Source: a bacterium (GTDB lineage Bacteria > Patescibacteriota > Minisyncoccia > UBA6257 > 02-FULL-45-10c). From it: a DNA stretch of 64,000 nt. Below the pieces are notes generated by a model, which was given only the letters and a program-made list of their open reading frames with translations, searched no databases and was not told where the DNA came from. Below are positions 1 through 62,668 of the stretch, one piece after another; the stretch's first letter is position 1, and each line of letters starts with the position of its first letter. The translations under genes were made by a program, and so were the position numbers. The stretch lies in the NCBI GenBank assembly GCA_030700025.1, contig JAUYKI010000015.1, positions 28,623 through 92,622 of the forward strand, given 5' to 3'.

Positions 1-7
1 GCCCGTA

Positions 8-275
8 GGGCCTGTCATAAAATTACTGGTTTAATTTGGAGGCCGAGATTTGAGCCAGATGCGAGGCACGACGACGAAATTGTAGCCATAGCTACGTTGA
101 GGAGGAGTAACAAAGTAGCTGGCCAAATATCGGCCTCCCCGAAGGGCCATAGTATTTTATGGGCTACGACTGCGTCACTCGTCGTCAATGTAACTCAAGT
201 TACAATCTCCTCCTCGTTTCTGGTCTCGCTCCAAAAATGCTGTGGCAAATAAGCCATTAATTTTATGACAGGCCC
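8..275. repeat. Palindromic (foldback) intergenic element bounded by an 18-bp perfect terminal inverted repeat. The arms are gggcctgtcataaaatta at 8–25 and taattttatgacaggccc at 258–275.
   Basis: The terminal inverted repeat and internal inverted repeats (gaggaggag/ctcctcctc, cgacgacg/cgtcgtc) were read directly. The element is GC-richer than its surroundings. It shares internal motifs with the element at 45814–46082 (gtagcCATAgctac, cgacga..gaaattg, gaggagg, cccgaaggg). Confidence 0.5.
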
Positions 276-339
276 TTAACTATAAAAGAGTTTATCATAA
301 ACACGTTATCTGTTAAAGTACAAAGAAGGTTTTTATCTT

Positions 340-1641
340 ATGTTTTCCAATAACAAACCAAAAGTGGCTATCATCGGCGCGGGAATGTCCGGCCTCGGCG
401 CGGCCATAAAGCTTTTAGAAAGCGGCTATTCCTGCGTTATTTTAGAATCCCAAGCCGAAGCCGGAGGGTTAGCCGGAAGTTTTTCCATTGATAAAAAATA
501 CTTTCCGTTTGGTTATCATCATATTCTTTGCCAAGATAAACCGCTTTTAAAAACCCTTAAAAAGCTGGGACTTTATCCGCAAGTAGCCTGGAAAAAAGGC
601 AAAGTGCTTTTCGCGGTAGACAATCAAATTTATAATCTGGAAAATCCCTGGGAATTTATTAAGTTTCCAATGTCCTGGAAGGCTAAAATTAAATTTGCCA
701 AATTAATGGCTTATTGTTTTTTAAAAAAGGATTGGGAAAAATCTCTTGGCAATGCCCAGAATTGGCTGGATAAAATCGCCGGCGAAGAGGTGCGGAAAAC
801 TATTTTTGATCCTTTAATGGATATCAAATACGGATTGCCTTCCGAAAATCTAAGCGCCAACTGGCTGGGAAGCCGGCTGCATTATCAGGAATTTTCTAAA
901 CCATTGGGATATCTGCCCAATCAAGATTGGACCAAAGTTTTAACTGACAAAATGGCGGAGAAAGTAAAAGAGCTCGGCGGAGAAATTATTACCAATGCTC
1001 CGGTTACAAAAATTCGCTTTAATCAAAATAAAGTAACCGGGCTGACTTATGTCCGCCAAAATCAAAGTTACGATATAAATACGGAGATTGTCATTAATAC
1101 CGCCCCGCCGCATATTTTTCTATCTTTGTGCGACTATCAGGACACCAAATTACAGAAAGTGGAGTATTTGGATGCCCTGTCTTTAATTCTGGAAACTGAG
1201 CAAAAATTACCGCGGGAACTATACCTTTTAAGCTGCCTAAGGCCGCGGTATTCTTTCGGGGGAATATTCATGCTGTCCTCTTTAAATAGAACTATCGGGG
1301 TTAAAAACGGTACGATTGTTAACTTTTTTACTACCCTAAGCCCAAAATATGAATACCTCCGGAGCCAAAATAGCGAAGAACTGCTGGAAACCTACCAGCG
1401 AGATTTTGAAAAAATCTTCGGCTTCCGCTTAGAACCCATTTGGCATCATTTAACATTAATTAAAAACTATTCTCCTAAGTTTTTAAATGATTACAAAAAT
1501 CCGGAAACTCGGGGAAATATTCCGGGGCTTTATTTTGCCGGAAATTATTTAACTTATCCGATTATTACTTCTACCGGAAGCGCGATCGCCTCGGGTGAAA
1601 AGGCCGCTGATTATATTATCCAAGACCACGATGGACATTAA
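340..1641 (+). CDS. FAD/NAD(P)-binding oxidoreductase (amine oxidase / phytoene desaturase-like family)
   Basis: N-terminal dinucleotide-binding motif VAIIGAGMSGLGAA followed by ESQAEAGG (the GxGxxG...E..GG pattern). The ORF is intact at 433 aa. Confidence 0.65.
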   Translation: MFSNNKPKVAIIGAGMSGLGAAIKLLESGYSCVILESQAEAGGLAGSFSIDKKYFPFGYHHILCQDKPLLKTLKKLGLYPQVAWKKGKVLFAVDNQIYNLENPWEFIKFPMSWKAKIKFAKLMAYCFLKKDWEKSLGNAQNWLDKIAGEEVRKTIFDPLMDIKYGLPSENLSANWLGSRLHYQEFSKPLGYLPNQDWTKVLTDKMAEKVKELGGEIITNAPVTKIRFNQNKVTGLTYVRQNQSYDINTEIVINTAPPHIFLSLCDYQDTKLQKVEYLDALSLILETEQKLPRELYLLSCLRPRYSFGGIFMLSSLNRTIGVKNGTIVNFFTTLSPKYEYLRSQNSEELLETYQRDFEKIFGFRLEPIWHHLTLIKNYSPKFLNDYKNPETRGNIPGLYFAGNYLTYPIITSTGSAIASGEKAADYIIQDHDGH

Positions 1642-25913: not shown

Positions 25914-27010
25914 CTTTTTATTATCTTAACAACTCTTTTCTCCCAAGTATAATTCTGAACCTTGGCGTAGGCATTCGCGGATAATGATTCTGCCAATGAC
26001 TGATTGCCGGCCACGGCTTCAATGGCTTTAGTTAAATTGGCCGAATCGCCTGCTTGAAAAAAGAAGGCTTCTTTTTCGCCGATCATTTCCCGCAACGAAG
26101 GAAGATCGGACGCGACAATCGGCCTTTGGCAGGCCATATACTCAAAAAGCTTTAAAGGAGAAGTGTATTTTTCAGAAATCGGATCTCCGGCCTTATTGGG
26201 AATAACTAAAACATCAGCCGCTTTTAAATAAAACGGGATATTTTCCCTTTTTAAAAAAGGCAGTATCCTAGCCTTAGTTTTAGGATATCGTTCTTGGATT
26301 TTTGCCAATTCATGGGGATGAGCTCCAATTAAAATTACCAAATAATCCTCCCCAAGTTTATCGGCGGCTTCAATTAAAGAATCGGCCCCTTTCCAGTCAT
26401 AAAAAAGGAAACTGCCGGTATATAGAATAATTTTTTTATTCATGGGCAAGCCCAGCTTTTGCCGCGCTTCTTTTTTAGAAATATTAATGGCAAATTCGTT
26501 CAGGTCCACGCTGTCGGGCAAAACCAAAATCTTCTCCGGAGCTATTCCCAGGCGCAGAATCTCTTTTTCTAAGGAATGCGTAATGACAACAATTAACCCG
26601 GCGCGCCGCAACATACGCAAAAACCATTGCCCGGCCCGATGAGGCATGGCATGAACCTCTAAAATAAAATTGTGGAATAAAATTCCCGTTAATGATTCTC
26701 GGGTATAAATAATATCGTATTTTTTAAACAGCAAATAGATTCTAGTAAAAATCAAAAAGCTGGCGGTGGATATAAAAAACCCGATTTTATGAATATCCAC
26801 CCAATCCGGGCCGGGTATCCAAATGATTTTAAAATTTTTCCTAACCTTATAAAACTCAAATGGATCAGTCTGCAAATTATTAAAACGGCGCGGTACCAAC
26901 AGATCCACGGCAACCCCCTGCTCGGCAAAGGCTTCGCACATTTTCATAATCTGGATGCCGTGAGCCTTCTCGGTAGGCATACGGATATTGGCGATATAAA
27001 TTAACTTCAT
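25904..27010 (-). CDS. GT4 family glycosyltransferase
   Basis: GT-B architecture with a ...VLVIPNKAGDPISEKYTSPLKLFEYMA... region. The start was moved to MKLIY. Confidence 0.7.
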   Translation of the reverse strand: MKLIYIANIRMPTEKAHGIQIMKMCEAFAEQGVAVDLLVPRRFNNLQTDPFEFYKVRKNFKIIWIPGPDWVDIHKIGFFISTASFLIFTRIYLLFKKYDIIYTRESLTGILFHNFILEVHAMPHRAGQWFLRMLRRAGLIVVITHSLEKEILRLGIAPEKILVLPDSVDLNEFAINISKKEARQKLGLPMNKKIILYTGSFLFYDWKGADSLIEAADKLGEDYLVILIGAHPHELAKIQERYPKTKARILPFLKRENIPFYLKAADVLVIPNKAGDPISEKYTSPLKLFEYMACQRPIVASDLPSLREMIGEKEAFFFQAGDSANLTKAIEAVAGNQSLAESLSANAYAKVQNYTWEKRVVKIIKRWN

Positions 27011-27134
27011 CCCACACATAACAAAGACTGCGAAGCTTTTCGCAAATCCTTGCCTTTTAATTTAATGCGGCATTTTGATTTTACCATCATAGTTATTAGC
27101 TTAGATATCCTATGGTCTTTGTTATGTGTGGGAT

Positions 27135-42165: not shown

Positions 42166-45100
42166 CTATTTGGTGAGAGTTTCAGAGGTCATGTTGGTAG
42201 ATGGCAAGCCCATCACGCCATAACCGTTAGTCCAGTCAAGGTTATTCAAGTACGCGGAATCGGATTCATTAGTGGAAGTAGAACGCGGTGACCACAAGAA
42301 ATCATTGTGGGTCGCATCGTTCACGCCAATTTCACCCAAGTGTCCAAAAGTACCCATATCACCGCTGACTGCGGAACCTCCTTGAATGTTAGTTGGGAAA
42401 GCGGCATCGCCTTCTAACTGAACAGACATGGATTCAGCTGTTCCGGATGGAGCAAGCGTAGCAACTGAAGCTTCTAACCGGAACCATCGGCTTTCGCCAG
42501 ACGGAATCTTGATAGTAGTAGTTGCTAAGTTGCAGCCGGTAACGTCCGGATAAATCTCAACTATAGATTGTAATCCTCCAGAAATGAAAGCTCCGGCAGT
42601 GTTTAACGCGCCGCCGCTATAGCAATTTCCGGCATTCACTAATCCACCAGGATTGTTAGCGCCGCTGAAATTACCGTCGGCAGAACTAAAGCCGGCATCA
42701 GTAAACACAAAGAGTGAGTACCGAGAAGTAGTAGCAGAAACCGTCGAAGAAGAGAAGCTGAAGGTCAACTTCGCGAGCGAAATGTCGCCGCTGTTGGCCG
42801 TCACTTTAAACTTGTAGAACGGTACCGATACTCCAGTAGTAAAGGCTCTCTCGGAAGAAGTTAAGTCAATCTTACTGAAAGAAGGATATCCTTTCGCGAT
42901 TCTTACGCCAGTAGAATCAGTAGACGCGCTAGTCGGACTTACAGTCTGACCAGACGAAACGCCTGTTCCATAGGTCGCAGTCAAGCCACCACCGCCATCG
43001 TAGTTAAGTTTCGGGAAATCACCGGATCGGGTCATAGGACCGGAAGCGGAAATTCCTGAGATTACTCCTTTAACAGTCAAAACTTTTGAACCGTCTTTAG
43101 GAACTACGAAGTTAGTGATGTTGGTTGAAGTAGCGCGGTTAGTTACACCGGCAGCTTCAGAGCCTGGGAAAGTGGCTGCGCCAACTTGAGTCGCTCCATC
43201 CCACAAAGTAACCTGTTGTCCAACTAAGTTAATAGGGGTGTTAGAAGCGGCGCCCGACATCATTAACGAAACTTGTTTCAATGAAACATCTTCGTTAGTA
43301 GCCGAGAATTTCAATTTGGCTAATTCCACAGTTTGTCCAGGAGCCACAATCATATAAGGAGCGGCAGAGTCTAACGACACGCTCATAGAACCAACAGTCG
43401 CGGCAGTCATTAACTGACCGATGTTATCGTTTTCAGTTAAAGTCGCAGTTTGGCCAGAGACCAAACCAGTTGGCGATGGAGCGGCGGTAGAATCATAACC
43501 CCAAGAATACGAACCAGTCGCGGCTGATTTAAGATCGCATTTCAATGATAACTGCTTGGAAGTGCCTTTGGTCAAAGTCAGGCCAGTGCCGTCAAAAGTG
43601 AAAGCAGTGGTAGAGCTTCGAGCCGAAGGACTTACAGCGTTGCTACCGCTGTTAAGAATGGTAACGCCATCATAAAGTTTGCAATTAGTTAAGTCAGTCG
43701 CATTGCCGGTAGTTGGGTTATATTCCAAAGGCAATGAGGTTAATCTCAAGTCTTCACCGGAAGCCGAGGTGTCTAAAATGTACCGGGCAAATTCGAACTG
43801 GTTAACACCCGCGATAACTGTCTGCGCGATTGGCACAGCAGAAACGCTAATTGTTAAGGCCGGTCCTTTTGCGGTCATTTGTTGGCCAGCAACAGCTGAG
43901 GTTGGGCTTGGAGTAATCGCATTTCCAGTAGATTGGCCAGTCGTGGTCCAAGTACTTGGCGTAGAAGAAGCCTGAAGAGTGTCGTTATTTTCAAACGCCG
44001 CTGTTCCGGCTGCTAATTTACCAACTAATTTAAAGTTGGTTACGCCAATTGGGAAGGTGATGGTATCGGTAAAGGTTAAGGATGGGCCAGTCAGAGTAGT
44101 TCCGCTAGCATCCAACGGTCCAGCCAATACTTTTCCGGATTCATCTACGATTTTAACATTGTCCAAATCATTCATACCAAGGCCAGTGGTTCCACCGGCG
44201 TCTTCAGTAAGAAGTAATTGGAACTTCATGTTGCTAACCGAGATGGCTTCACCCTTAACTTCAACAGACCAACCACCTAATGGCTGATCGGCCAAGTTAA
44301 CGGCGATGTTCTGAGCCGCCACGGTATTCCAGGAGCTGACGCTCATGGTTCCGGTGCTGATCGTAACTTGAGCAGCATCATACCATGGGTCTTCAACGTT
44401 GCTGAAAGCCGCAGTGTCATCAGTCGGATCAGTAGCGCCAGTTTGCGGAGGAACAATTCCATAGCCATAGGTTTCGCCTACGACGAAGAGATCAGTTCTT
44501 TTCGCAAGATCAAAGTCTACAGTCCGGGAAGAACCGCTAACAACATCTCCCTTAACAACGATTTCTTTGTTGAAACCCTTGTCCATTAAGATGCCGCTGC
44601 CAGGAAAGACGGTTGAATAATATTTGCCGTCAGAGCTGACCACGGTGTCATAGGAAACGCCGTCCACGATAGTCTTCACATTTTCCAAGTCTGCTTTACC
44701 AGCAGAACCAGTCTGATTCCATCGGATAGATTTAACATAAATCTTTTCCGCGGAGCCAGCAGTTACTTTTACAGACGAAAAGACATAGCCCGTAGTGCCG
44801 ATTTCTTTTGTCTGGCTAGAACCTGGATCCAATGGGCCACGAGCCATAGTAACGCTACCAATTGTTAAGGTTTCGTTAATAGTGTGGGTCGTGCCAACCA
44901 ATGGGGTGCCAAAGACGCTAGCAGAAGTATTTACCGCTGTAACGCGTAAGGCCAAAGTCTGACCGCCATAAGAACCACCGACTGCAGCGCGGTTAGCAGC
45001 TACAACGACGGATACGGTTTGGCCAGCCTTTACTACAAATGTTTCGCCAACATTTGCTTTGTGTTCAGAGTTCAAGGTCTTTTTAATACCAAGCTGATTG

Positions 45101-45801
45101 CCCACGGAGTCTAACAAGAGAACGCCATCTAATGCGGCGTCCGCAGCAAGACCAATTCTTTCCACGGTCAAAGAGTTAACAGTTACATCGCCATCGGCAG
45201 ATGCAGTTAACAAAACTTTAGTGAAAGGAATTCGTGCGGCATCACCAGGAGCCAAGCTGGAAACTGGCTGATCGGAAGCTAAGCTTACGGTCAAACCGGA
45301 ACCGGCTGGGACTGGAGCTGGGGTGGTAGTGCCAGGAACAGTAACAACACCGCCAGCCATTGAATTATATTTGGCCTGCGAAAGCGGACCAAAATAACCA
45401 ACTGCTGGAACAACGCCGTTAGCGGCCTGCCACTTTGCAACCGCTGCTCTGGTTAAAGAACCAAAGTAGGTAGATTCATTGCCAACCGAACCAGCGCCGC
45501 TTGCCGCAACCGCGTGTCCAGCAGCGTTCAAGTATTTCTGTAAGCAACGGACATCTTCACCCGTGAAGCCCACTGTGAGGGAGCGAGTCCATGAGCAAGC
45601 GCCTGCTACTACAGTACTTGGAGTTCCGGACAACTGCGCTTGCAAAGCAGTAATCTGCGTAAGCAAGGCGTTGATTTGAGCTTGCAATTCTTCTACGGTT
45701 GCACCATAAGCGACTGGCAACAAAGCGCCAGCGCCAGAAAGTGAAACGACTGTAGCAACAGATACTACAGTTGTAGAAATTTTTGTAAGTAATTTACTCA
45801 T
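42166..45801 (-). CDS. Giant (about 1211 aa) secreted Ser/Thr/Gly/Ala-rich surface protein. It has a signal peptide, a coiled coil, a peptidoglycan-binding-like domain and a long beta-rich region. It is a probable glycosylation substrate.
   Basis: MSKLLTKISTTVVSVATVVSLSGAGA signal; EELQAQINALLTQITALQAQL coiled coil; CLQKYLNAAG...AVAKWQ PG-binding-like domain; then more than 1000 aa at high S/T/G/A/V content. The ORF as listed starts at a TTG inside the inverted repeat; the true start is taken as ATG at 45801, with GAGAGGA upstream. Confidence 0.7.
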   Translation of the reverse strand: MSKLLTKISTTVVSVATVVSLSGAGALLPVAYGATVEELQAQINALLTQITALQAQLSGTPSTVVAGACSWTRSLTVGFTGEDVRCLQKYLNAAGHAVAASGAGSVGNESTYFGSLTRAAVAKWQAANGVVPAVGYFGPLSQAKYNSMAGGVVTVPGTTTPAPVPAGSGLTVSLASDQPVSSLAPGDAARIPFTKVLLTASADGDVTVNSLTVERIGLAADAALDGVLLLDSVGNQLGIKKTLNSEHKANVGETFVVKAGQTVSVVVAANRAAVGGSYGGQTLALRVTAVNTSASVFGTPLVGTTHTINETLTIGSVTMARGPLDPGSSQTKEIGTTGYVFSSVKVTAGSAEKIYVKSIRWNQTGSAGKADLENVKTIVDGVSYDTVVSSDGKYYSTVFPGSGILMDKGFNKEIVVKGDVVSGSSRTVDFDLAKRTDLFVVGETYGYGIVPPQTGATDPTDDTAAFSNVEDPWYDAAQVTISTGTMSVSSWNTVAAQNIAVNLADQPLGGWSVEVKGEAISVSNMKFQLLLTEDAGGTTGLGMNDLDNVKIVDESGKVLAGPLDASGTTLTGPSLTFTDTITFPIGVTNFKLVGKLAAGTAAFENNDTLQASSTPSTWTTTGQSTGNAITPSPTSAVAGQQMTAKGPALTISVSAVPIAQTVIAGVNQFEFARYILDTSASGEDLRLTSLPLEYNPTTGNATDLTNCKLYDGVTILNSGSNAVSPSARSSTTAFTFDGTGLTLTKGTSKQLSLKCDLKSAATGSYSWGYDSTAAPSPTGLVSGQTATLTENDNIGQLMTAATVGSMSVSLDSAAPYMIVAPGQTVELAKLKFSATNEDVSLKQVSLMMSGAASNTPINLVGQQVTLWDGATQVGAATFPGSEAAGVTNRATSTNITNFVVPKDGSKVLTVKGVISGISASGPMTRSGDFPKLNYDGGGGLTATYGTGVSSGQTVSPTSASTDSTGVRIAKGYPSFSKIDLTSSERAFTTGVSVPFYKFKVTANSGDISLAKLTFSFSSSTVSATTSRYSLFVFTDAGFSSADGNFSGANNPGGLVNAGNCYSGGALNTAGAFISGGLQSIVEIYPDVTGCNLATTTIKIPSGESRWFRLEASVATLAPSGTAESMSVQLEGDAAFPTNIQGGSAVSGDMGTFGHLGEIGVNDATHNDFLWSPRSTSTNESDSAYLNNLDWTNGYGVMGLPSTNMTSETLTK

Positions 45802-45813
45802 AATTTTATTATT

Positions 45814-46082
45814 GTCCTCTCTGTACAAATGTTTCCACTAAATTGAAATCTTTGGTTTTATATTAAGTTCAAGGCGCGAGGAGGAAATCGTAGCTATGCT
45901 ACCTTTCCGACGAGCAACGATGAAATTGATGTAAAATCAAGATTCCCGAAGGGTAAGGAAATTTTCTGAAATTCCTTCGTTATTTCTCCTCAACGTGGCG
46001 TACGCCACAGCTTCGTCGAAACGCCTTGGAATTTCAGAAAATTTCTCTTATCAATTTGTGAAAATATTTGTACAGAGAGGAC
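45814..46082. repeat. Large nested palindromic element. From outside in: outer 17-bp inverted repeat (gtcctctctgtacaaat); inner 18-bp inverted repeat (gaaattttctgaaattcc); central perfect 14-bp palindrome (gtggcgtacgccac). The left arm carries an insert of about 105 bp.
   Basis: Arms compared directly. The outer left arm overlaps the SD and 5' UTR of the giant surface-protein gene. Confidence 0.6.
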
Positions 46083-46544
46083 TTGTCCTTTCTCCTTCTT
46101 AAACAACTTTATCGACTTAGCGGCCTAAGAAGAAGCTTATTATTATTTATTAATTATTTTTTAATTTCAAAAATTATTTCTCCCGCTGTTCCCCTTGTCG
46201 ACCATCGACTTTTAACTTTCGATAATCGACTTAGAGGACCGACCTCAACAAAAGAATAATTTCCCAATATCAATGTTAAATTTTTTGTTAATGCTTCGTG
46301 AGGGAAACTATCAACAAAAAATCTCGCTTGGAGCGAGACTAAATAAACCCTTAATAAACCTTTGCCAGTCAGCAAAATCGCTGACTGATAAAAACTTATA
46401 ACGGATTCAGCCTCACTCTGAATCTCTGTGACATCAAATGATGTCACTTATTATTATATCAAATATTCAATTCTGATAAGCCTTTTTCTGTGCATAACTG
46501 GGTTTAGGCTTACGTAGAAATATAACGAATCTGCCCTATTCCTG

Positions 46545-47297
46545 TTACGACTTCAGCTGATAATACGTAGCTGGCCCGCCATTGCCAATTCTCTCCACCA
46601 CCCCCTGCTCGGCCAACCGCTGTAAGTCGTATCGCAGGGTTCTTTCGCTAACGTGTGGAAATTCAGTTATTAAATCCTTCAATCGGCAGCCGATTCCGTT
46701 GCCAGATTTGATCCTATCCATAATTGCCGATTGCCGAATTGCCATATTAACGCCGTTGCCGTTGCCGTTGCCGTTTCCATTTACACTGAGCGTAGTCGAA
46801 GCGTTGCCGTTTTCATGATAGCCATTACTACCCTCTTTAATTTCAAAGGTTTCATCCGGCAATGCCATTGGTAAACTAGATACGCCGTTCCATGATTCAG
46901 ATTTCATTAAGCTGGCAACCGGCAACGGCTGTTGCGAAGGCATTGCCGTAAACAAAGATTCTAATTTCGGCAGTTCCTGATCTACATTGCCGAATTGCCG
47001 GATTGCCGAATGGAAAGTATTTAACTCTTTAATTAAGATCGTCGCGTTAACTGGCTCAACTTCATAAAGCGAATGGCCAACCCGAACCAGGGAGTCTAAT
47101 GCCGCAATGTTCTTAAACACCGCCTGAACCATGCCCTTGTCGGTAATATCAATGCTGGCGCAAGCCATATTTTCTAAAAGCTCAAAAGCCGAGCGCTCCA
47201 GGCGATGCTTCAATTCCGGGCGCTTAACATAAAAAGACACCTTGACTAAGGCGTAGCAAATTTCCCGCGCTTTCTGCTTAAGAGACTCCGAAGACAT
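46545..47297 (-). CDS. Putative DNA-binding regulator with a C-terminal winged helix-turn-helix (DeoR/HTH_11-like) and an internal (NG)5 linker
   Basis: C-terminal LKDLITEFPHVSERTLRYDLQRLAEQGVVERI; central NGNGNGNGNG encoded by (GCCGTT)4. The N-domain is unassigned. Confidence 0.45.
   Translation of the reverse strand: MSSESLKQKAREICYALVKVSFYVKRPELKHRLERSAFELLENMACASIDITDKGMVQAVFKNIAALDSLVRVGHSLYEVEPVNATILIKELNTFHSAIRQFGNVDQELPKLESLFTAMPSQQPLPVASLMKSESWNGVSSLPMALPDETFEIKEGSNGYHENGNASTTLSVNGNGNGNGNGVNMAIRQSAIMDRIKSGNGIGCRLKDLITEFPHVSERTLRYDLQRLAEQGVVERIGNGGPATYYQLKS
46741..46766. repeat. Hexanucleotide tandem repeat (GCCGTT)4, in-frame, encoding (NG)n
   Basis: Read directly. Confidence 0.8.
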
Positions 47298-52180: not shown

Positions 52181-52293
52181 ACGCTTACGCTAATGAAATG
52201 CTAATATACTAATTCATACTAATAATACTAATTAAATTGGTATAATTCGCATGTATTAGTATATTGGTATTACACTATTAGATTAGCAAAAAA

Positions 52294-52320
52294 TTAGCAC
52301 TCTGTCAATGAGAGTGCTAA
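52294..52320. promoter_or_regulatory. CIRCE operator (HrcA binding site): TTAGCACTC-N9-GAGTGCTAA, with a TTGACA -35 hexamer inside the spacer on the clpB strand
   Basis: Perfect match to the CIRCE consensus read directly. A TTGACA-17-TAATCT promoter on the minus strand overlaps it. Confidence 0.75.
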
Positions 52321-52441
52321 TTCTTAGTAAGGGTTCAGGTGTGGGAAATAATCTCAGGCTTGTAATCGGCTGTTCCCGCCCCGTCACTAAAAGAGCATTT
52401 TTATTTCTCGCAGGCGGAAGCCGTAGCGAGCAATGCTCTTT

Positions 52442-52468
52442 TTAGTGCGGGGTCAATGAGAGTGCTAA
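52442..52468. promoter_or_regulatory. Second, degenerate CIRCE-like element (TTAGTGCGG-N9-GAGTGCTAA)
   Basis: The right arm and spacer are identical to the first copy; the left arm is diverged. Confidence 0.4.
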
Positions 52469-52494
52469 TTCTTTGGTATTCAGGGAATTTTATC

Positions 52495-52710
52495 TTACAA
52501 GCTATCTATATCCGCCTCCAAGCCCTGGAGTTCGGCATCCACATCGCCCAAATCAACGGCGTTCAAATCCTGGTCAATCGCCACAGTCGTGTCTTCTTCG
52601 GAAACAGTTTCCGGAGCAATGGCCGGCTGTTGGTTCCACCACCACAAAGCCACGGCCAATAAAACAACTACGACTACCCAAATCCAAGTTTTAGATTTTT
52701 GTGATTCCAT
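52495..52710 (-). CDS. Small protein of 71 aa with one transmembrane helix and an acidic C-terminal tail
   Basis: WIWVVVVVLLAVALWWW hydrophobic segment. No similarity recognised; it may be real or spurious. Confidence 0.3.
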   Translation of the reverse strand: MESQKSKTWIWVVVVVLLAVALWWWNQQPAIAPETVSEEDTTVAIDQDLNAVDLGDVDAELQGLEADIDSL

Positions 52711-52830
52711 CCCTCACCCTTGAAAGGCCTAACGCGTTTCCGCGTTTTTGTTTCAAGGTTAATTTAAATTTATAATTTTATCGACATTTTTAAATATAAT
52801 ACATCAATTCTAATCCCAGCCTTTCAAAGG
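52711..52830. repeat. Intergenic element bounded by an 18-bp inverted repeat (tccctcacccttgaaagg / cctttcaaaggtgaggga, one mismatch) around about 80 bp of AT-rich DNA
   Basis: Read directly. Confidence 0.4.
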
Positions 52831-52848
52831 TGAGGGATTTTATCGCGA

Positions 52849-54867: not shown

Positions 54868-55929
54868 TTATTGTAACTCATTCAATTGTTTTTGGATTTT
54901 ATATCCTTGGCAATGTTTTAACAAGCCCAAATAAGATTGTAAATTTTTGCCATTAATTTTTCTCAATAACCTTCTTTTTGTCTTAGTTCTTAAAATTCTA
55001 TAGTGGGGTCTTGCGATATATCCTAAAAAATCAATTCCTTGGGAAAATTTCCGAATAATTATCTTATTCGGATGTAGGGTTAAATTTAAATTATCCGCTA
55101 AAAACTTGCTTACTTTATCTGTAATTCCTATAAAATTCTCTTTTGTATCGCTTAAAACAACAAAGTCGTCGCAATAACGGAGATAATGTTTAATTTTTAA
55201 TTTATGCTTAATAAATTGGTCCAATTCATTTAAATAGATGTTGGCAAAAAGCTGGCTGGTTACGTTGCCAAGTGGCAATCCTTTGTCCGGATTTTTTTCA
55301 AAACTTTTTATAACTTTTTCAATAAGCCAAATGTCTTTTGGGTCAAAAATTTTCTTTTTGATTAAATTCAATAAAATTTGCTGGTCAATAGAATCAAAAA
55401 ACTTACTGATATCGCACTTTAAAACAAAAACCGGCTTGCAGTAATTCTTGCTCAATTTCCGAAGAAAAATTCCTAACCGTTCTACCGCGATATGCGTCCC
55501 CTTGCCCAGCCGCGATGAATCAGAATCGTAAATAAAACCCTTATCAAAAATCACGTATAAAATCCGAAAAATTGCTTGGTGCAAGACCCGGTCTCGGACG
55601 CTGGCTTTATGAATATGCCGCAATTTCGGGTCTTGAACATAAAAAGCTGTGTATAAATCAGGTTTGTAAATTTTATCCTTTAATTCCTGATGAAGTTGAA
55701 ATAAATTGTCTTCCAGATTAAACTCAAATTGCTGAACGTCCGATTTTTTCCTTTTTCCGCGCCGGAATTCTTTCCACGCTAAAAATAAATTTTCCAGCGA
55801 AATTATCCGTTCAAAAATATTATGACTTTTAATACCCCCCCCCCTCCAAATTTGCCTCTGATTCATAAGCTTGATGAATTCTATCGCAATATCTATCTGC
55901 TCGGCAAGCAAATTCCGAAACGGGATCAT
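54868..55929 (-). CDS. Diversity-generating retroelement (DGR) reverse transcriptase
   Basis: RT motifs 1–7 are present. These include DISKFFDSID and the DGR-type motif 4 GLPLGNVTSQLFANIYL (I/LGxxxSQ where other RTs have QGxxxSP). Also present are YLRYCDDFVV (YxDD) and LHPNKIIIRKFSQGIDFLGY. Similarity is closest to Bordetella phage bRT as recalled from memory. The true start is probably internal (about 55866) or near the G10 tract. Confidence 0.9.
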   Translation of the reverse strand: MIPFRNLLAEQIDIAIEFIKLMNQRQIWRGGGIKSHNIFERIISLENLFLAWKEFRRGKRKKSDVQQFEFNLEDNLFQLHQELKDKIYKPDLYTAFYVQDPKLRHIHKASVRDRVLHQAIFRILYVIFDKGFIYDSDSSRLGKGTHIAVERLGIFLRKLSKNYCKPVFVLKCDISKFFDSIDQQILLNLIKKKIFDPKDIWLIEKVIKSFEKNPDKGLPLGNVTSQLFANIYLNELDQFIKHKLKIKHYLRYCDDFVVLSDTKENFIGITDKVSKFLADNLNLTLHPNKIIIRKFSQGIDFLGYIARPHYRILRTKTKRRLLRKINGKNLQSYLGLLKHCQGYKIQKQLNELQ

Positions 55930-56181
55930 TTTGGAATTTTTTTGAAAATTGAAAATGTTTTACTAGATGTTCTCGAATTGATTATTACTGCTTCCCTAGA
56001 AACTAAAATTAATAAAATTTCGCCGTTGAATTCTGCTCGGATTAAAATAGAAATCCTAAAACGGCTGATTAGATTGATACAGGAATTTAAAATCATTGAA
56101 GCGAATAAATATCTTACGTTAGAAAAAGACCTTCAAGAAATTTCCAAAATGATCAACGGCTGGATTAAATACTTAAAATAA
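55822..56181 (+). CDS. DGR accessory variability determinant (Avd-like four-helix-bundle protein)
   Basis: 119 aa. LIHKLDEFYRNIYLLGKQIPKRDHFGIFLKIENVLLDVLELIITA aligns with Bordetella bAvd LIVERYERVISYLYPIAQSIPRKHGVAREMFLKCLLGQVELFIVA. The C-terminal EISKMINGWIKYLK aligns with EVGRILGSWIARV. The bAvd sequence is recalled from memory. The ORF is on the opposite strand to the RT and target. Confidence 0.65.
   Translation: MTFNTPPPPNLPLIHKLDEFYRNIYLLGKQIPKRDHFGIFLKIENVLLDVLELIITASLETKINKISPLNSARIKIEILKRLIRLIQEFKIIEANKYLTLEKDLQEISKMINGWIKYLK
55836..55845. repeat. Homopolymeric C10 (G10 on the RT strand) tract in the region shared by the 5' ends of the RT and Avd ORFs
   Basis: Counted directly. 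It encodes PPPP in Avd and RGGG in the RT ORF. Confidence 0.9.
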
Positions 56182-56204
56182 ATAACTCCGATTAAGGAGT
56201 TATT
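56181..56204. other. 9-bp stem hairpin (aataactcc-GATTAA-ggagttatt) between the Avd stop and the TR
   Basis: Read directly. Confidence 0.4.
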
Positions 56205-56208
56205 TATA

Positions 56209-56336
56209 GAAACTTCTGCGCGAGTCCGCAAATTACCATTGGCGTTGTCCGGATTGTACCAGTTGACCTTGAGCTTGCGATTGATCGGATTCCAATTCAC
56301 GTTCGGCACGTTGCCATTAGGATTGCGCGAACCAGC
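56209..56336 (-). other. DGR template repeat (TR), 128 nt, coding-sense on the minus strand
   Basis: Co-oriented near-identical copy of the VR. All 24 TR/VR differences sit at TR adenines. In the target frame it encodes AGSRNPNGNVPNVNWNPINRKLKVNWYNPDNANGNLRTRAEVS, with 13 AAY codons. Confidence 0.85.
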
Positions 56337-56553
56337 TTTTGCTTGTCTCCTGCTATATCACCGATAATCTTATAACAAAATTATCTGAGTTTTCCGGACA
56401 CACCGGATTTATTTTTGTAGCATTCACCAACGGCGAAACCTACACCAAAAACAAGCAAGCAGTTTCTGTTATTTGTGGTAAATCACTATCCGCCGTAGGC
56501 GGACTGATTATATTAACCGTAATTAGAATAAATCAATTTTGACCAAAAGAAAA

Positions 56554-56580
56554 TCCCCAGTCGCCTTTGGCGACTGGGGA
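56554..56580 (-). terminator. 12-bp GC-rich hairpin (tccccagtcgcc-TTT-ggcgactgggga) followed by a T-run on the minus strand, about 30 nt after the target stop
   Basis: Read directly. It could be the target-gene terminator, the DGR structure downstream of the VR, or both. Confidence 0.6.
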
Positions 56581-56609
56581 TTAAGGGTTCAAGTCAAAAG
56601 ATTCAAGGG

Positions 56610-57347
56610 TTAAACAGAAACTACTGCGCGAGCCCGCAAATCACCACTGGCGCTGCCCGGACCGTACCAGCCGACCCCGAGCCAGCGACCGATCGGACCC
56701 CAATCCACGCACGGCACGCTGCCATCAGGATAGCGCGAACCAGCGCAAAGTGTCCAATTCTTTTCATCCAGGTGTTTATTAGTTTCCAGGAAATACTTGA
56801 GTTCCAGGAGCAGACGCTCTTCCAGGGCGATGCCATTGATTTGCTCTTTGGCCAAGTCATTGGCTGACTTGTTCTTGAGCTCTTCGTCGGCTTCCTGGCG
56901 GTCTCTGACCCAGATGGCGTAGGTTTCGCCGGTGTTTCGGACCGAAGTGATGGAATTGAGATTGTTCGTGCAGGTCCAAACGCTCATGTGTTTCCTTAGG
57001 ACTTGGACAATCTGATTGAGGGTCAATCCCTTGGCAACGACAATCAACCAATCAATGCCCGGAACACGCTTTGGGGGCTGGATTTTTGAGATATCCAGCT
57101 CAATGCCAAATTCCTGGCGGTAGAGGGTTTGCCAGGCGCGAAGCATTGCTCGCACACTCTGGCCGGGTCGGGTCTGCTTTTCTTTGATGACAGAAGCTGT
57201 TGCTTCCGCGAAATTCGGATTCTCCTTAATTCGCTGAAGCGCCCCGGACACCTGATCCGGATCGCGCTTGCCATCCCGCACCAGCTCCAGCACCGTAGTC
57301 ACCAAATCCAGCAGCCGCGCTTTCTTTCGTTCGGTTCTTGCGAACAT
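56610..57347 (-). CDS. DGR target (variable) protein. The N-terminal region is uncharacterised. The C-terminal region ends in the VR and may be C-type-lectin/FGE-like.
   Basis: The C-terminus is ...NWTLCAGSRYPDGSVPCVDWGPIGRWLGVGWYGPGSASGDLRARAVVSV. The start was set at ATG 57347 (MFARTERKK), preceded by AAGGAG. The gene is markedly GC-richer than the neighbouring RT and Avd. Confidence 0.8.
   Translation of the reverse strand: MFARTERKKARLLDLVTTVLELVRDGKRDPDQVSGALQRIKENPNFAEATASVIKEKQTRPGQSVRAMLRAWQTLYRQEFGIELDISKIQPPKRVPGIDWLIVVAKGLTLNQIVQVLRKHMSVWTCTNNLNSITSVRNTGETYAIWVRDRQEADEELKNKSANDLAKEQINGIALEERLLLELKYFLETNKHLDEKNWTLCAGSRYPDGSVPCVDWGPIGRWLGVGWYGPGSASGDLRARAVVSV
56617..56744 (-). other. 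DGR variable repeat (VR) forming the last 43 codons of the target gene
   Basis: 104 of 128 positions are identical to the TR. All 24 mismatches are at TR adenines (A to G/T/C in the coding sense). It ends 5 nt before the stop. Confidence 0.85.
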
Positions 57348-57426
57348 TTTTGTTCTCCTTAGTTCTTTCACATCTGTCCAAATCCGGTTATCGCGGATTG
57401 GTATCTGATTTTGAAAGAACGTTCCT

Positions 57427-57474: not shown

Positions 57475-57628
57475 AAAACACAAAATCCTCTTGTTTCTGA
57501 TACCCGCGCAGCCGCTTTGCCCTGGTCCAATCGTTATGGGCGGAGCCACGATTGGCAAAGCGAGCGAGCACAAGAGAGTCCGCGGTGGCGGACGAACGGG
57601 TTGAGGGAATAAGAGGATTTTGTGTTTT
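57475..57628. repeat. GC-rich element of about 118 bp bounded by a perfect 18-bp inverted repeat (aaaacacaaaatcctctt / aagaggattttgtgtttt), lying between two divergent promoters
   Basis: Read directly. The interior has further stem-forming segments (gctttgcc/ggcaaagc, ccaatcg/cgattgg). Confidence 0.5.
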
Positions 57629-57688: not shown

Positions 57689-58186
57689 ATGACCGAGCCA
57701 ATGCTTTTTAACAGCTCCTTCGGCCTGAAGCTGGATCCTTTTCAAATCGTTAAGGCGATTTCTGATTTTATCAACTCCGACCCTAAGCGGGAATATAAAA
57801 TTACCGTGGGCACCGATTCCCAAAAACGGCAGGACAACAAAGCGGATTTCGTTACCGCCATTGTCGTCCATCGGGTTGGCTATGGCGGACGCTATTTCTG
57901 GCGGCACATGGAAATCGCCAAATCTTACACGCTAAGGGACAGAATGTGGCAAGAAGTGCTTACTTCTTTGGACATCAGCAAAGAATTAGTGGTGCTTTTA
58001 AAAAATGCCGGACTGGAAAAATATAATTTTGAAATTCATGTGGATATCGGCGAAAAAGGCGAAACTAAATCTATGATTCAAGAACTGACCGGCATGATCC
58101 GCGCGCACAACTTTGAAGCCCGGACCAAGCCGGACAGCTATGCCGCCTCCAAAGTCGCCGACCGGCATGTTCATATTTATGACTAA
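57689..58186 (+). CDS. YkuK-like (DUF458) RNase-H-fold protein
   Basis: ITVGTDSQ...ADFVTAIVVHRVGYGGRYFW...EIHVDIGEKGETKSMIQELTGMI...AASKVADRH is colinear with Bacillus YkuK as recalled from memory. Confidence 0.6.
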   Translation: MTEPMLFNSSFGLKLDPFQIVKAISDFINSDPKREYKITVGTDSQKRQDNKADFVTAIVVHRVGYGGRYFWRHMEIAKSYTLRDRMWQEVLTSLDISKELVVLLKNAGLEKYNFEIHVDIGEKGETKSMIQELTGMIRAHNFEARTKPDSYAASKVADRHVHIYD

Positions 58187-60508: not shown

Positions 60509-62668
60509 ATGGCCAAATTAATCAAAAAAATTAAAACTAAAACCGGGCTGGGAGAAAAGCTCCGCCGCCTGCGTTCCCAAATCCATCCGGAAACCGAACA
60601 AAGCGTTCTGGGAATTATTTTTATCGGCGTGGCAACAATTTTAATTCTGGCGAATTTCCATAAAGCCGGGCCGGCCGGAGAATTAACCTACAAAATCCTG
60701 TCCCAGCTTTTCGGACTGGGCTATTACCTCTTCCCAACCATCTTCTTAGTGATGGCGGGAACATTCTTGTCCGGCCAGGAAAAAAAGGAGCGCGCCATGA
60801 CAGTTACTTTTCTAAGCGCGGTTTTCTTTGTGGCGGCCGGACTGGGACTGATTGATATTATTTTCCCGGACAAAGGCGGAATGGTGGGGCGCTGGATCGG
60901 CACTCTGGAAATTCCGTTCGGCTATACCGCCGCTATTATTGTGGATGCCACAATTCTTTTGGCGGCCCTAATTCTGACTGCCAATGTTCCGCTGAAAATC
61001 CGGCGCTTGCTGAAAGAAGAAAAGAAGCCGGAAGCGCCGCTGGTGGTTAAAAATGCCGACAGCTTTACCGCGCCTGCCGCCGCTTCAAAAGCTGAAGAAT
61101 CAAAACAAGTTCCGGAAAAAGAAACAAATGCTGCTCCGACGCTCGCTGAAAGCGAGGCCGGAGGCCCGAATACCGCGTATGTCGGGCAAAATCCAAAGGC
61201 CTTTTTCGTACCGAGAAAAAAAGCTTCCGGCGCTTTGCCGATAAGCAAAAATTATACGCCTCCGCCAACCTCTTTACTGAAGTCCAGCATTGAAAAGCCG
61301 ACTTCGGGCGACTTGCGCGCCAACGCCAATATTATAAAAAGGACTTTGGAAAGTTTCGGCATTCCGGTAGAAATGGGCGAAATAACCATCGGCCCGAAAG
61401 TTACCCGCTATACTTTGAAGCCGGCGGAGGGAATTAAATTGACGCGCATTATTGCTTTAAACCAGGATTTATCTTTGGCGCTGGCCGCCCATCCCATCCG
61501 CATTGAAGCGCCGATTCCCGGAAAATCTTTAGTGGGAATTGAAGTGCCGAACAAATCCGCGGCCATTGTCCGCTTAGGCAGTTTGATGGCCTTTCCGGAA
61601 TTTACCGGTTCCGGTCCGCTGGGATTTATTTTAGGGCGCGATGTCAGCGGCGATCCGATTATCGCGGACATTGAGAAAATGCCGCATCTTTTAATCGCCG
61701 GTTCCACCGGCAGCGGAAAATCAGTCGCCATCCATTCTTTAATTATTTCTTTGCTGTATAAAAATTCTCCGGAAACTCTGCGGATGATTTTAATTGATCC
61801 AAAACGGGTAGAGCTGACAATTTATAATGATATTCCCCACTTGATTGCGCCGGTAATTACCGAGGGCAAAAAAGCTTTGGGAGTTTTCCGCTGGGCAATT
61901 GAAGAAATGGAAAAACGCTATGAAAAACTGCAGGGCGCCGGCGCCCGCGACATCCGCAGTTACAATAAAACCAATCCGAAAGATACCCTGCCTTACTTAG
62001 TGATTGTCGTGGATGAATTAGCCGACTTGATGGCGGCTTACGGCCGGGACATTGAAAGCTCCATCGTCCGCCTGGCGCAAATGGCCCGCGCCACCGGCAT
62101 TCACTTGGTGCTCTCCACCCAACGGCCATCCGTGGAAGTCATTACCGGCCTGATTAAAGCCAACATCACCGCCAGAATGGCGCTTCAAGTGGCAAGCCAG
62201 GTTGATTCCCGCACCATTTTAGACATGGCCGGAGCGGAAAAACTTTTAGGCGGAGGCGATATGCTTTTTACTTCATCGGATCTTTCCAAACCAAAACGCA
62301 TTCAGGGGGCTTATATCAGCGAAGAAGAAATGCACGCCGTGGCTGATTTTATCCGCGATCACAATCCCTCACTCTTGGAAGACCAAGAGCCAACGGCTCT
62401 TGAGAAATCTTTAAATCAGTCTTCCAAAAGTGAGGGATTAGATTTTGATAATTACGCCCAGGTCGATGACGACGAACTTTATGACGAAGCCGTGCAAATA
62501 GTCCGGGAGGCGCAAAAAGCTTCGGCTTCTTTATTGCAAAGGCGTCTGGCTGTCGGCTACGCGCGAGCCGCCCGCCTGCTGGATATAATGGAGGAGCGCG
62601 GAGTAGTCGGCCCGGGCGACGGCGCCAAGCCCCGGGAAGTTTATTTGGACCGCGGCGAACAAAATTAA
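60509..62668 (+). CDS. ftsK: DNA translocase FtsK
   Basis: N-terminal transmembrane helices and a linker, then the motor domain (GSTGSGKS Walker A, VVDELADLM Walker B). A C-terminal gamma (winged-helix) domain with LYDEAVQIVREAQKASASLLQRRLAVGYARAARLLDIMEERGVVGP. Confidence 0.9.
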   Translation: MAKLIKKIKTKTGLGEKLRRLRSQIHPETEQSVLGIIFIGVATILILANFHKAGPAGELTYKILSQLFGLGYYLFPTIFLVMAGTFLSGQEKKERAMTVTFLSAVFFVAAGLGLIDIIFPDKGGMVGRWIGTLEIPFGYTAAIIVDATILLAALILTANVPLKIRRLLKEEKKPEAPLVVKNADSFTAPAAASKAEESKQVPEKETNAAPTLAESEAGGPNTAYVGQNPKAFFVPRKKASGALPISKNYTPPPTSLLKSSIEKPTSGDLRANANIIKRTLESFGIPVEMGEITIGPKVTRYTLKPAEGIKLTRIIALNQDLSLALAAHPIRIEAPIPGKSLVGIEVPNKSAAIVRLGSLMAFPEFTGSGPLGFILGRDVSGDPIIADIEKMPHLLIAGSTGSGKSVAIHSLIISLLYKNSPETLRMILIDPKRVELTIYNDIPHLIAPVITEGKKALGVFRWAIEEMEKRYEKLQGAGARDIRSYNKTNPKDTLPYLVIVVDELADLMAAYGRDIESSIVRLAQMARATGIHLVLSTQRPSVEVITGLIKANITARMALQVASQVDSRTILDMAGAEKLLGGGDMLFTSSDLSKPKRIQGAYISEEEMHAVADFIRDHNPSLLEDQEPTALEKSLNQSSKSEGLDFDNYAQVDDDELYDEAVQIVREAQKASASLLQRRLAVGYARAARLLDIMEERGVVGPGDGAKPREVYLDRGEQN

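Follow-up and report, generated by a model that had tools for sequence, protein, structure and literature searches.

The DNA analysed here, referred to as the window, is a stretch of 64,000 nucleotides from contig JAUYKI010000015.1 (assembly GCA_030700025.1), and the element under study, E1, is a 269-bp palindrome at 45814–46082 whose end lies 12 nt upstream of the start codon (ATG, 45801) of a surface-protein gene on the minus strand. The surface protein has hundreds of full-length homologues in Parcubacteria. Upstream of the palindrome, at a distance of 463 bp, lies an HTH_DeoR-like gene (46545..47297), in keeping with an original prediction, made from the letters of the sequence, that had placed a winged helix-turn-helix (wHTH) regulator nearby.

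The two nested inverted repeats that had been described for E1 were both recovered by repeat search. The outer repeat pairs 45814–45841 with 46055–46082 over 28 nt at 89% complementarity, the first 17 nt from the end being perfect, and the inner repeat pairs 45958–45975 with 46028–46045 over 18 nt without a mismatch. The 17-mer at the end occurs at two sites in 64 kb, which are the two ends of E1, against 0.05 expected, and none of 100 shuffles reaches two. As a single strand E1 is predicted to fold into a Y whose parts are the outer stem, a pair of long hairpins and a mini-hairpin at the centre, with an energy of −124.9 kcal/mol on the gene-sense strand (z = −10.2 vs shuffles) and −120.2 kcal/mol on the opposite strand (z = −11.3). 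The outer repeat terminates in ...AGAGAGGAC 12 nt before the surface-protein ATG; its final 8 nt, GAGAGGAC, occupy 45814–45821 and leave a 12-nt gap to the start codon. A GAGAGGA tract at this end had been taken for the Shine-Dalgarno (SD) sequence of the gene. The tract does lie inside the repeat, 12 nt from the ATG, but its role as an SD is doubtful, most genes of the window having none.

E1 has no coding content beyond two short by-product open reading frames (ORFs), and at well under ~500 bp it is of the size of a MITE (miniature inverted-repeat transposable element). Both ORFs had been pointed out before and are present: a 63-codon frame with a TTG start ('MYRED', 46068..46259), which is a by-product of the repeat, and a 12-codon frame, MLPFRRATMKLM, at 45879–45934, where the apical module M2 reads on the plus strand as AGGAGG-N11-ATG. 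The latter is likewise an artefact of the repeat; its ATG sits in a hairpin loop and was found in one of four members checked by eye in the alignment. Rfam returned nothing at the gathering threshold and, in E-value mode, only chance matches to miRNA-type hairpins, and a search for tRNA and tmRNA found none. The features of E1 and its surroundings are collected in Table 1.

Table 1. Features of E1, its second copy and the surface-protein leader (window coordinates)
Feature	Position	Strand	Evidence or remark
E1, complete 269-bp family copy	45814..46082	-	Inverted repeats; family-profile nhmmer E 4.9e-53; missing from orthologous leaders
Outer stem 5' arm (terminal inverted repeat), GTCCTCTCTGTACAAAT...	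46051..46082	-	Fold: 31 bp with 45814-45846
Hairpin H1; lower stem is the perfect 18-bp inner repeat	45954..46050	-	Inverted repeat and fold; E2 stem unrelated in sequence yet paired
Apical module M1, CGACGAA-GC-T-GTGGC-GTAC-GCCAC-GTT-GAGGAG	45986..46018	-	Pattern matches; best-conserved segment
Central mini-hairpin CCC-UUCG-GGG, exact element centre	45945..45953	-	Fold; CCC...GGG stem (helix 7) in all members
Hairpin H3, the 'extra 105-bp segment' of the left arm	45847..45944	-	Fold; compensatory changes in helices 8-10
Apical module M2, CTCGTCG-GAAAG-GTAGC-ATA-GCTAC-GATT-TCCTCCTCG	45877..45914	-	93% identical to M2 of the L009 copy
Outer stem 3' arm (terminal inverted repeat), ends ...ACAGAGAGGAC, the purine tract read earlier as SD	45814..45846	-	Inverted repeat and fold
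E2, second family copy, 270 bp, 30-nt terminal inverted repeats	7..276	+	63 nt upstream of amine-oxidase-family gene 340..1641
Surface-protein gene, intact, 1211 aa, PG_binding_1 (peptidoglycan-binding)	42166..45801	-	Pfam; kept across Parcubacteria
GGACAA, native leader end (aaaGGACAA) just upstream of insertion	46083..46088	-	Hexamer recurs at 45812-45817
Conserved 5' leader stem-loop CTTCTTCTTAGG...TTTAAGAAGGAG	46092..46135	-	Fold; alignment with L001 and L002 (both without element)
Promoter-like TTGAAA-17-AATAAT upstream of leader stem-loop	46142..46170	-	Consensus match only; TTGAAA conserved in relatives
Hybrid promoter-like site: -35-like TGGAAA (45832-45837) in element arm, -10-like AATAAT (45808-45813) outside	45808..45837	-	Consensus match; 6 nt before ATG

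A self-search of the window revealed a second copy of the element, E2, at 7–276 (nhmmer E 4e-9). The two share one architecture, with an outer stem, hairpin H1, a 3-bp mini-hairpin at the exact centre and hairpin H3, and their stems are unrelated in sequence, as in H1, where E1 has GAAATTTTCTGAAATTCC and E2 has GGAGGCCGAGATTTG. Both copies have two conserved apical modules, with the consensus CGACGAA-NN-T-GTRRC-loop-GYYAC-GTT-GAGGAG for M1 and CTCGTCG-N5-GTARC-loop-GYTAC-N4-TCCTCCTCG for M2. A relaxed module pattern, GASGARNNTGTRRCNNNNGYYACNTTGASGAS, retrieved 12 JGI metagenome contigs, each of which was also recognised by the family profile (E 1e-12 to 1e-37); the E1 terminal-repeat pattern had no matches in metagenome contigs. 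L006 and L007 (contigs and loci are given as L numbers) each carry two copies. In the orientation of the family model E1 lies on the minus strand, which is also the sense of its downstream gene.

Full-length copies measure 267–276 bp, and two others, lengthened by a perfect 22-nt hairpin within M1, reach 291–292 bp. The copies at L010 127–418 and L013 722–1012 contain an identical perfect 22-nt palindrome, CCTGCCTGCCGGCAGGCAGG(G), inside M1, an insertion within an insertion. Variants include a 164-bp element with family ends and a different, single-hairpin core (L005 3942–4105) and a copy without H3 (L007 2708–2884); L015 1–121 is an independent ENA assembly of the cydA locus of L011 that is broken in mid-element. 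The terminal inverted repeats (TIRs) of the other full-length members are 20–32 nt long, as expected of MITEs. Family ends are related (AGAACCYAT..., AGGACCTAT..., GTCCTCTSTG..., AGGGCCTGTC...), and an RGG stands 4–6 nt from the terminus in most members. In viral contigs the module pattern had no matches, and the TIR and M1 patterns had 10 and 2, which gave only fragmentary, non-significant profile alignments (27–38 nt, E ≥0.012). BLAST against phage and plasmid collections yielded no match.

To place E1 in the history of the locus, the upstream regions of the two closest retrievable homologues of the surface protein were compared with the window: L001 (71% identical) and L002 (67%, from a Candidatus Harrisonbacteria metagenome-assembled genome, MAG). 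In L002, for which full flanks are available, the gene order is ClpB, a hypothetical gene, the HTH_DeoR-like gene, the surface-protein gene and a PMT glycosyltransferase; for L001, of which less upstream DNA was retrieved, the order is a hypothetical gene, the surface-protein gene, a GIY-YIG gene and PMT. The intergenic region upstream of the surface-protein gene is ~380–400 bp in these relatives vs 744 bp in the window, and E1 is missing from both of their leaders. The three leaders become collinear once 269 or 271 bp are excised, aaaggacaa..taataaaattATG in the one case corresponding to aaaggtcaaaaaaatagattATG in the other; the alignment was made with the element excised, MAFFT having misplaced the gap on the unexcised leaders. 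Common to all three are a hairpin GATTCAGAGTGAGGCTGAATC, a terminator-like hairpin, a TTGAAA box and a 5' stem-loop TTCTTCTTA...TAAGAAGA. After this stem-loop the relatives continue with aaaGGTCaaaaaaa(t)agattATG, and the window with aaaGGACAA-[269 bp]-AATAATAAAATTATG. As shown by this comparison of leader sequences, E1 was inserted 12–14 nt upstream of the ATG, splitting a leader whose other parts are conserved in relatives. The insertion has left the 17 nt ahead of the ATG unaltered, because the last four bases of the element (GGAC) repeat the native ones. The hexamer GGACAA recurs at 45812–45817, where it consists of the last 4 nt of the element and 2 nt of flank, so that four of its six nucleotides belong to the TIR; the GGACAA pair could be either a target duplication or a microhomology.

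Farther upstream, a part of the leader is also conserved in the three genomes (window 46300–46470, minus strand; L001 930–1070; L002 2700–2840). It contains the hairpin GATTCAGAGTGAGGCTGAATC at 46404–46424, followed by the terminator-like hairpin with its T-run at 46320–46340, and may represent an attenuator or the gene of a small RNA.

A second pair of empty and filled sites was found in the S10 ribosomal-protein operon, where the copy of L009 lies between rpsS and rplV. The closest named relative of L009 is Candidatus Harrisonbacteria RIFCSPLOWO2_02_FULL_45_10 (L018), whose L22 protein is 77% identical. In L018 the junction reads rpsS-TAA-AATTTATAT-ATG-rplV, with a 9-nt spacer, vs TAA-AAAAA-[271 bp]-CATAT-ATG in L009.

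The neighbours of the remaining copies are unrelated to one another. The copy of L012 precedes recO and that of L013 a HAD hydrolase gene, the ATG standing 2 nt from the element end in each; the copy of L011 lies between the stop codon of a HEAT-repeat gene and cydA, and that of L010 overlaps the stop codon of an M23 peptidase gene. A start codon is found 2–12 nt from the element in 4 of 12 full copies. The model-sense strand runs in the same direction as the surrounding genes in ~7 copies and is antisense to them in three or four (L009, L011, L007 and perhaps L005). Given unrelated neighbours and both orientations, the element is neither gene-specific nor orientation-specific. A fixed orientation to the downstream gene, which had seemed to hold for E1 and E2, failed for L009, L011 and L007. 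Protein similarity identifies the hosts of the window and of L009 as Harrisonbacteria-like. The CydA of the L011 host is 84% identical to those of Elusimicrobia MAGs, and the L011 copy is 71% identical to E2; the family is therefore present in at least two phyla.

The evolution of the fold was examined in an alignment (A1) of eleven full copies with an RNAalifold consensus structure. Both sides have changed in 64 of its 85 predicted pairs. Standard pairs occupy 90.0% of cells vs 35.7–42.1% when the partners are shifted by 1–3 columns, and the observed pairing measures all lie beyond what 500 shuffles attain. Compensatory changes are seen in 18 of the 23 pairs of helix 1 and 18 of the 20 pairs of helix 3. 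Mean pairwise identity is 76% in M1, 64% in M2 and 48–50% in the stem and terminal segments. G.T wobbles number 51 vs 30 A.C mismatches, nine of the G.T coming from a single near-invariant column (9 of 11 copies), and fold energies are alike on both strands. There is thus no clear strand signal, and the pairing could matter in DNA or in RNA of either sense.

M1 is composed of a small hairpin on a helix in which a C-G pair recurs at every third position, with positions capable of forming tandem G.A/A.G pairs between. At pairs 67–103 and 70–100, ten members have C-G and one (L014) has G-C. The M2 tract is the pyrimidine complement of the M1 tract, and each strand therefore has one 'G.A zipper'. 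Of the 11 aligned full copies, 5 have a UNCG tetraloop (UUCG or UCCG) at the centre of the element on the model-sense strand; E2 has UUCG on the other strand. Three further readings of the modules were considered by eye and set aside: a hammerhead in M1 (wrong order of motifs, and a G at the would-be cleavage site), a k-turn in M1 (a bulge of 1 nt, not 3 nt) and a conserved Watson-Crick pairing that would join M1 and M2 over a long range (E1 and E2 have a crossed order of motifs, L005 a nested one).

The family is placed among the bacterial MITE-like palindromic repeats because it is non-coding and multi-copy, has TIRs and empty orthologous sites, and includes size variants that share its ends. 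Copies occur at unrelated loci (two in the window and members on 12 contigs), and two comparisons set a filled site beside an empty one. E1 is thus, in our judgement, very probably one copy of a dispersed, non-coding palindromic repeat family of ~270 bp, similar in kind to MITEs, REPINs (doublets of repetitive extragenic palindromic, or REP, sequences) and ERICs (enterobacterial repetitive intergenic consensus elements), that was inserted into the leader. A MITE-like foldback insertion was among the options of the original prediction, and it is the one that the second copy, the 12 contigs with unrelated neighbours and the element-free orthologous leaders bear out. The family, which stands at gene boundaries in bacteria of the candidate phyla radiation (CPR) and Elusimicrobia, is undescribed; a literature search turned up no account of small mobile repeats from CPR bacteria. 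E1 is not a switch built for the surface-protein gene.

Several observations weigh against this assignment. The termini and stems are the least conserved segments (48–50%) and the internal modules the most (64–76%), the reverse of ordinary MITEs. E1 and E2 are only ~49–63% identical, with no sign of recent activity in the genome of the window. No consistent target-site duplication was found around 12 copies, nor in the comparison of L018 with L009, and Pfam searches found no transposase, RAYT (REP-associated tyrosine transposase) or recombinase in the 64-kb window or the fetched loci. Searches of 185,579 species genomes with the E1 end, or with a module pattern stricter than the one that found the metagenome contigs, returned no matches, and the family may be rare among species genomes. 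The compensatory changes could reflect selection on the function of each copy rather than selfish spread; on our own reasoning, they could also arise without selection through hairpin-templated repair of quasi-palindromes. Finally, we infer the effect of E1 on expression, discussed below, from models. A rule by which one flank copies 4–6 nt of the opposite terminus was also tried; it holds in only ~7 of 12 copies and is not claimed.

The alternative that survives best treats the family as primarily a functional structured RNA or single-stranded DNA module, kept by the host at gene boundaries, with mobility secondary or ancient. Possible roles would be control of translation or mRNA stability, or a protein platform on the tandem G.A helices. 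Stems that covary while apical modules are conserved form the pattern of a functional RNA, and the UNCG tetraloops on the model-sense strand, the full copies that lie 2–12 nt from start codons and the intact structure of the old and diverged E1 and E2 point the same way. Nevertheless, we consider this explanation unlikely: neighbours are unrelated and both orientations occur, neither the wobble counts nor the fold energies show strand asymmetry, orthologous sites are empty, variants share the TIRs with different or deleted cores, and templated repair can preserve palindrome symmetry without selection.

A riboregulator or thermometer in the leader, evolved to serve the surface-protein gene and hiding its SD in a stem until a signal arrives, would accord with the pairing of GAGAGGA in the predicted 31-bp stem and with the leader fold (z ~−10). 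It is nonetheless very improbable, as the orthologous leaders lack the element and the same element stands beside unrelated genes, in antisense too. In addition, an SD is missing from most genes of the window, the distance from the tract to the ATG is 14 nt, as it is for the native AAAGGA that the tract duplicates, and a stem of ~−105 kcal/mol is implausible as a reversible switch. The family has no fixed gene, no fixed orientation and no Rfam match, and it is absent from L001 and L002. Of the SD-sequestering hairpin proposed in the original prediction, sequestration is possible as a consequence of the insertion, but the hairpin was not purpose-built, orthologous leaders being without it. The notion of a gene-specific element fell when the same element was found at many unrelated sites.

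We regard as extremely unlikely an invertible DNA segment acting as a phase-variation switch, or a cruciform operator for the neighbouring wHTH protein, even though the inverted repeats flank a 213-bp segment just upstream of the surface-protein gene and the HTH gene is 463 bp away. As had been anticipated for the invertible switch, Pfam searches of the window ORFs detected no recombinase; the interior is nearly palindromic, so that inversion would change little, and housekeeping genes such as rpsS and rplV flank members of the family. A link to the wHTH gene as operator or cruciform is not supported, that gene being syntenic in L002, which lacks the element. An assembly or amplification artefact, that is, a chimeric inverted duplication, can scarcely be credited: multiple displacement amplification chimeras can produce palindromes and one ENA contig breaks inside a copy, but the arms are imperfect and asymmetric, and architecture and length recur in independent datasets and hosts.

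The consequences of the insertion for expression were considered from the predicted fold of the whole leader, which, in answer to a check suggested with the original prediction, folds far better than shuffles. In this fold the 5' stem-loop forms, the native AAAGGACAA is unpaired, the element closes on itself through the 31-bp outer stem, and 24 nt including the AUG are unpaired. A −10-like box stands 6–7 nt upstream of the 5' stem-loop in the three genomes (TAAAAT, AAAAAT and AATAAT). Transcription starting at this conserved upstream promoter would yield an mRNA with a branched hairpin of ~−105 kcal/mol that pairs the GAGAGGA tract. The native AAAGGA and the AUG would remain single-stranded at the base of the hairpin, and translation could continue across it; the self-closing fold would bring the upstream native purine tract next to the AUG while sequestering the copy of this tract carried by the element. 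Initiation across an intervening hairpin has precedents in phage T4 genes 38 and 25. The outer stem could, by analogy with transcripts of Correia elements, be a substrate of RNase III.

Alternatively, transcription might start at the ATG itself, from the AATAAT 6 nt upstream, and bypass the element. SD-like motifs are missing from most of the 52 gene starts of the window. In 6 of the 52 genes a −10-like hexamer (A2 and T6 present, 5 or more of 6 positions matching) lies exactly 6 nt before the start, vs 0–3 at any other distance, and the surface-protein gene is among these six (AATAAT-aaaatt-ATG). The peak at 6 nt suggests that leaderless transcripts are frequent in this CPR genome. With SDs scarce and a −10-like box 6 nt from the ATG, it is a live possibility that transcription begins downstream of E1. 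By eye, the relatives have no equally good box at the AATAAT position.

The Pfam scans took in essentially all independent window ORFs of at least 120 aa. They found genes for sugar modification and glycosyltransferases, ClpB, FtsK and similar proteins; the sole polymerase-type match is the reverse transcriptase of a diversity-generating retroelement (DGR), and Y1_Tnp had no match among the ORFs of the 64 kb. Neither the window nor the fetched loci yielded a parent insertion sequence (IS) whose ends match. The family would spread, or have spread, through a factor supplied in trans. A single-strand, HUH-type route like that proposed for REPINs would fit the conserved hairpins and the lack of target duplication better than DDE cut-and-paste. 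Survival at gene boundaries might be favoured by the element folding back on itself, which would keep its flanks adjacent, and the RGG purine tract at the ends would leave a ribosome-binding-like sequence beside the start codon. It is conceivable, though doubtful, that the family represents a new self-folding mobile hairpin that moves as a single strand without target duplication by means of an HUH/RAYT-like or other factor. Such a hairpin would have been exchanged between CPR bacteria and Elusimicrobia and adapted to gene boundaries, its ends restoring ribosome-binding or promoter-like sequence and its fold reuniting the flanks, with the G.A-zipper hairpins serving as recognition sites.

The REPIN is the closest described kind of element. 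REPINs are REP doublets with a hairpin or 'clover' fold in which compensatory changes are common, and they are thought to be moved by RAYT (Y1) transposases through an IS200-like single-strand mechanism (PMC3116915). The present family is likewise non-coding and intergenic, and its two inverted conserved units, each with a small palindrome, inside a larger hairpin recall those of REPINs. It shares the 'clover' fold, in which each REPIN unit forms its own hairpin, as well as compensatory changes that keep the hairpins. No target-site duplication was seen in it, and the REPIN paper is silent on one (PMC3116915). In ~7 of 12 copies one flank resembles the opposite terminus, which recalls the complementary 5' tail that REPIN intermediates have been proposed to carry. 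The modules M1 and M2 stand in inverted orientation with a 5-bp hairpin each, but they tip internal hairpins of a 270-bp element whose outer stem is a long, variable inverted repeat, whereas REPINs measure roughly 70–110 bp. The window holds two copies and, in its 64 kb, no RAYT, and the hosts are CPR bacteria and Elusimicrobia. We have not filed the family as a REPIN because it is ~3 times larger, its conserved units are not terminal and the search for a RAYT was limited to 64 kb.

The Correia elements of Neisseria (CREE/NEMIS) are also small palindromic repeats with TIRs and a conserved core that lie near gene starts. They measure 100–155 bp, with a TA duplication and an IHF site. The present family differs in having no sequence similarity to them, no duplication, a three-branched fold and hosts of different phyla. 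Correia elements are co-transcribed, their ends can create promoters, and their TIR hairpin in mRNA is a substrate of RNase III (PMC2649163; PMC10969869). A comparable promoter may be foreshadowed in E1, where the −35-like TGGAAA of the arm stands 18 nt from the −10-like AATAAT. ERICs (also termed intergenic repeat units, IRU) are imperfect palindromes in transcribed intergenic regions that occur in either orientation and are variably present between related genomes, in all of which the family resembles them. Work by Wilson and Sharp from 2006 is said to have found that their RNA-type secondary structure is kept by compensatory substitutions. ERICs are 127-bp single hairpins of Gammaproteobacteria only, with reported effects on mRNA stability (Hulton 1991; Wilson & Sharp 2006, cited in PMC10969869). 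They have no sequence similarity to the family (Rfam and BLAST negative). Likeness to IS-derived MITEs extends to small size, TIRs, the lack of an ORF, unrelated sites, empty orthologous sites and size variants sharing TIRs; the family differs from them in having neither a target-site duplication nor a parent IS that was found, and in termini that are less conserved than the interior.

Other features of the window were noted in passing. A second palindromic set (27009–27134, 52709–52838 and 62363–62439) has 20-nt arms and common ATCCCNCAC ends, with interiors unrelated to the E1 family. Its first two members occupy intergenic positions, each touching or overlapping a start codon at one edge and a stop codon at the other, and the third is contained in the 3' end of the FtsK ORF (60509..62668). 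Dense nested palindromes occupy 52191–52481, just upstream of the ClpB start (52180), with 43-nt arms in 52191–52277 and 23-nt arms at 52281–52303 and 52459–52481. A 154-nt imperfect hairpin with 41-nt arms (57475–57628), in the spacer before an RNaseH-like gene (57689..58186), looks like a small RNA or another repeat and had no Rfam match even at a relaxed threshold. The DGR is complete (54868–57371) and consists of the reverse transcriptase gene (54868..55929, minus strand), the accessory gene bAvd (55822..56181, plus strand), a template repeat (56208–56336) and a variable repeat (56616–56744) in the 3' end of the target gene (56610..57371, minus strand); all 24 mismatches between the repeats fall at template adenines. 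Adjoining the surface-protein gene, ~40 kb (1–42000) are taken up almost entirely by genes for GT1, GT2 and GT4 glycosyltransferases, PMT_2 mannosyltransferase-like proteins, sugar epimerases and dehydratases, and methyltransferases, and may form a surface-glycosylation island. In the HTH_DeoR-like protein a GNGNGNGNG run encoded by GTTGCC/GCCGTT repeats (46731–46790, minus strand, within 46545..47297) forms a low-complexity linker whose length could vary.

For annotation, these results mean that the palindrome upstream of the surface-protein gene should not be labelled an operator, a phase-variation site or a riboswitch. The family to which it belongs is unusual in occupying tight spacers of essential operons (rpsS-rplV), in spanning two phyla and in having no target duplication. 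It is also unusual in a fold that is kept by compensatory change as the sequence drifts to ~50% identity, the ends being less well conserved than the interior. Annotation would gain from a covariance model of the family, which would explain long 'intergenic' gaps and contig breaks in MAGs, and phylogenetic profiling with such a model could point to the mobilising enzyme.

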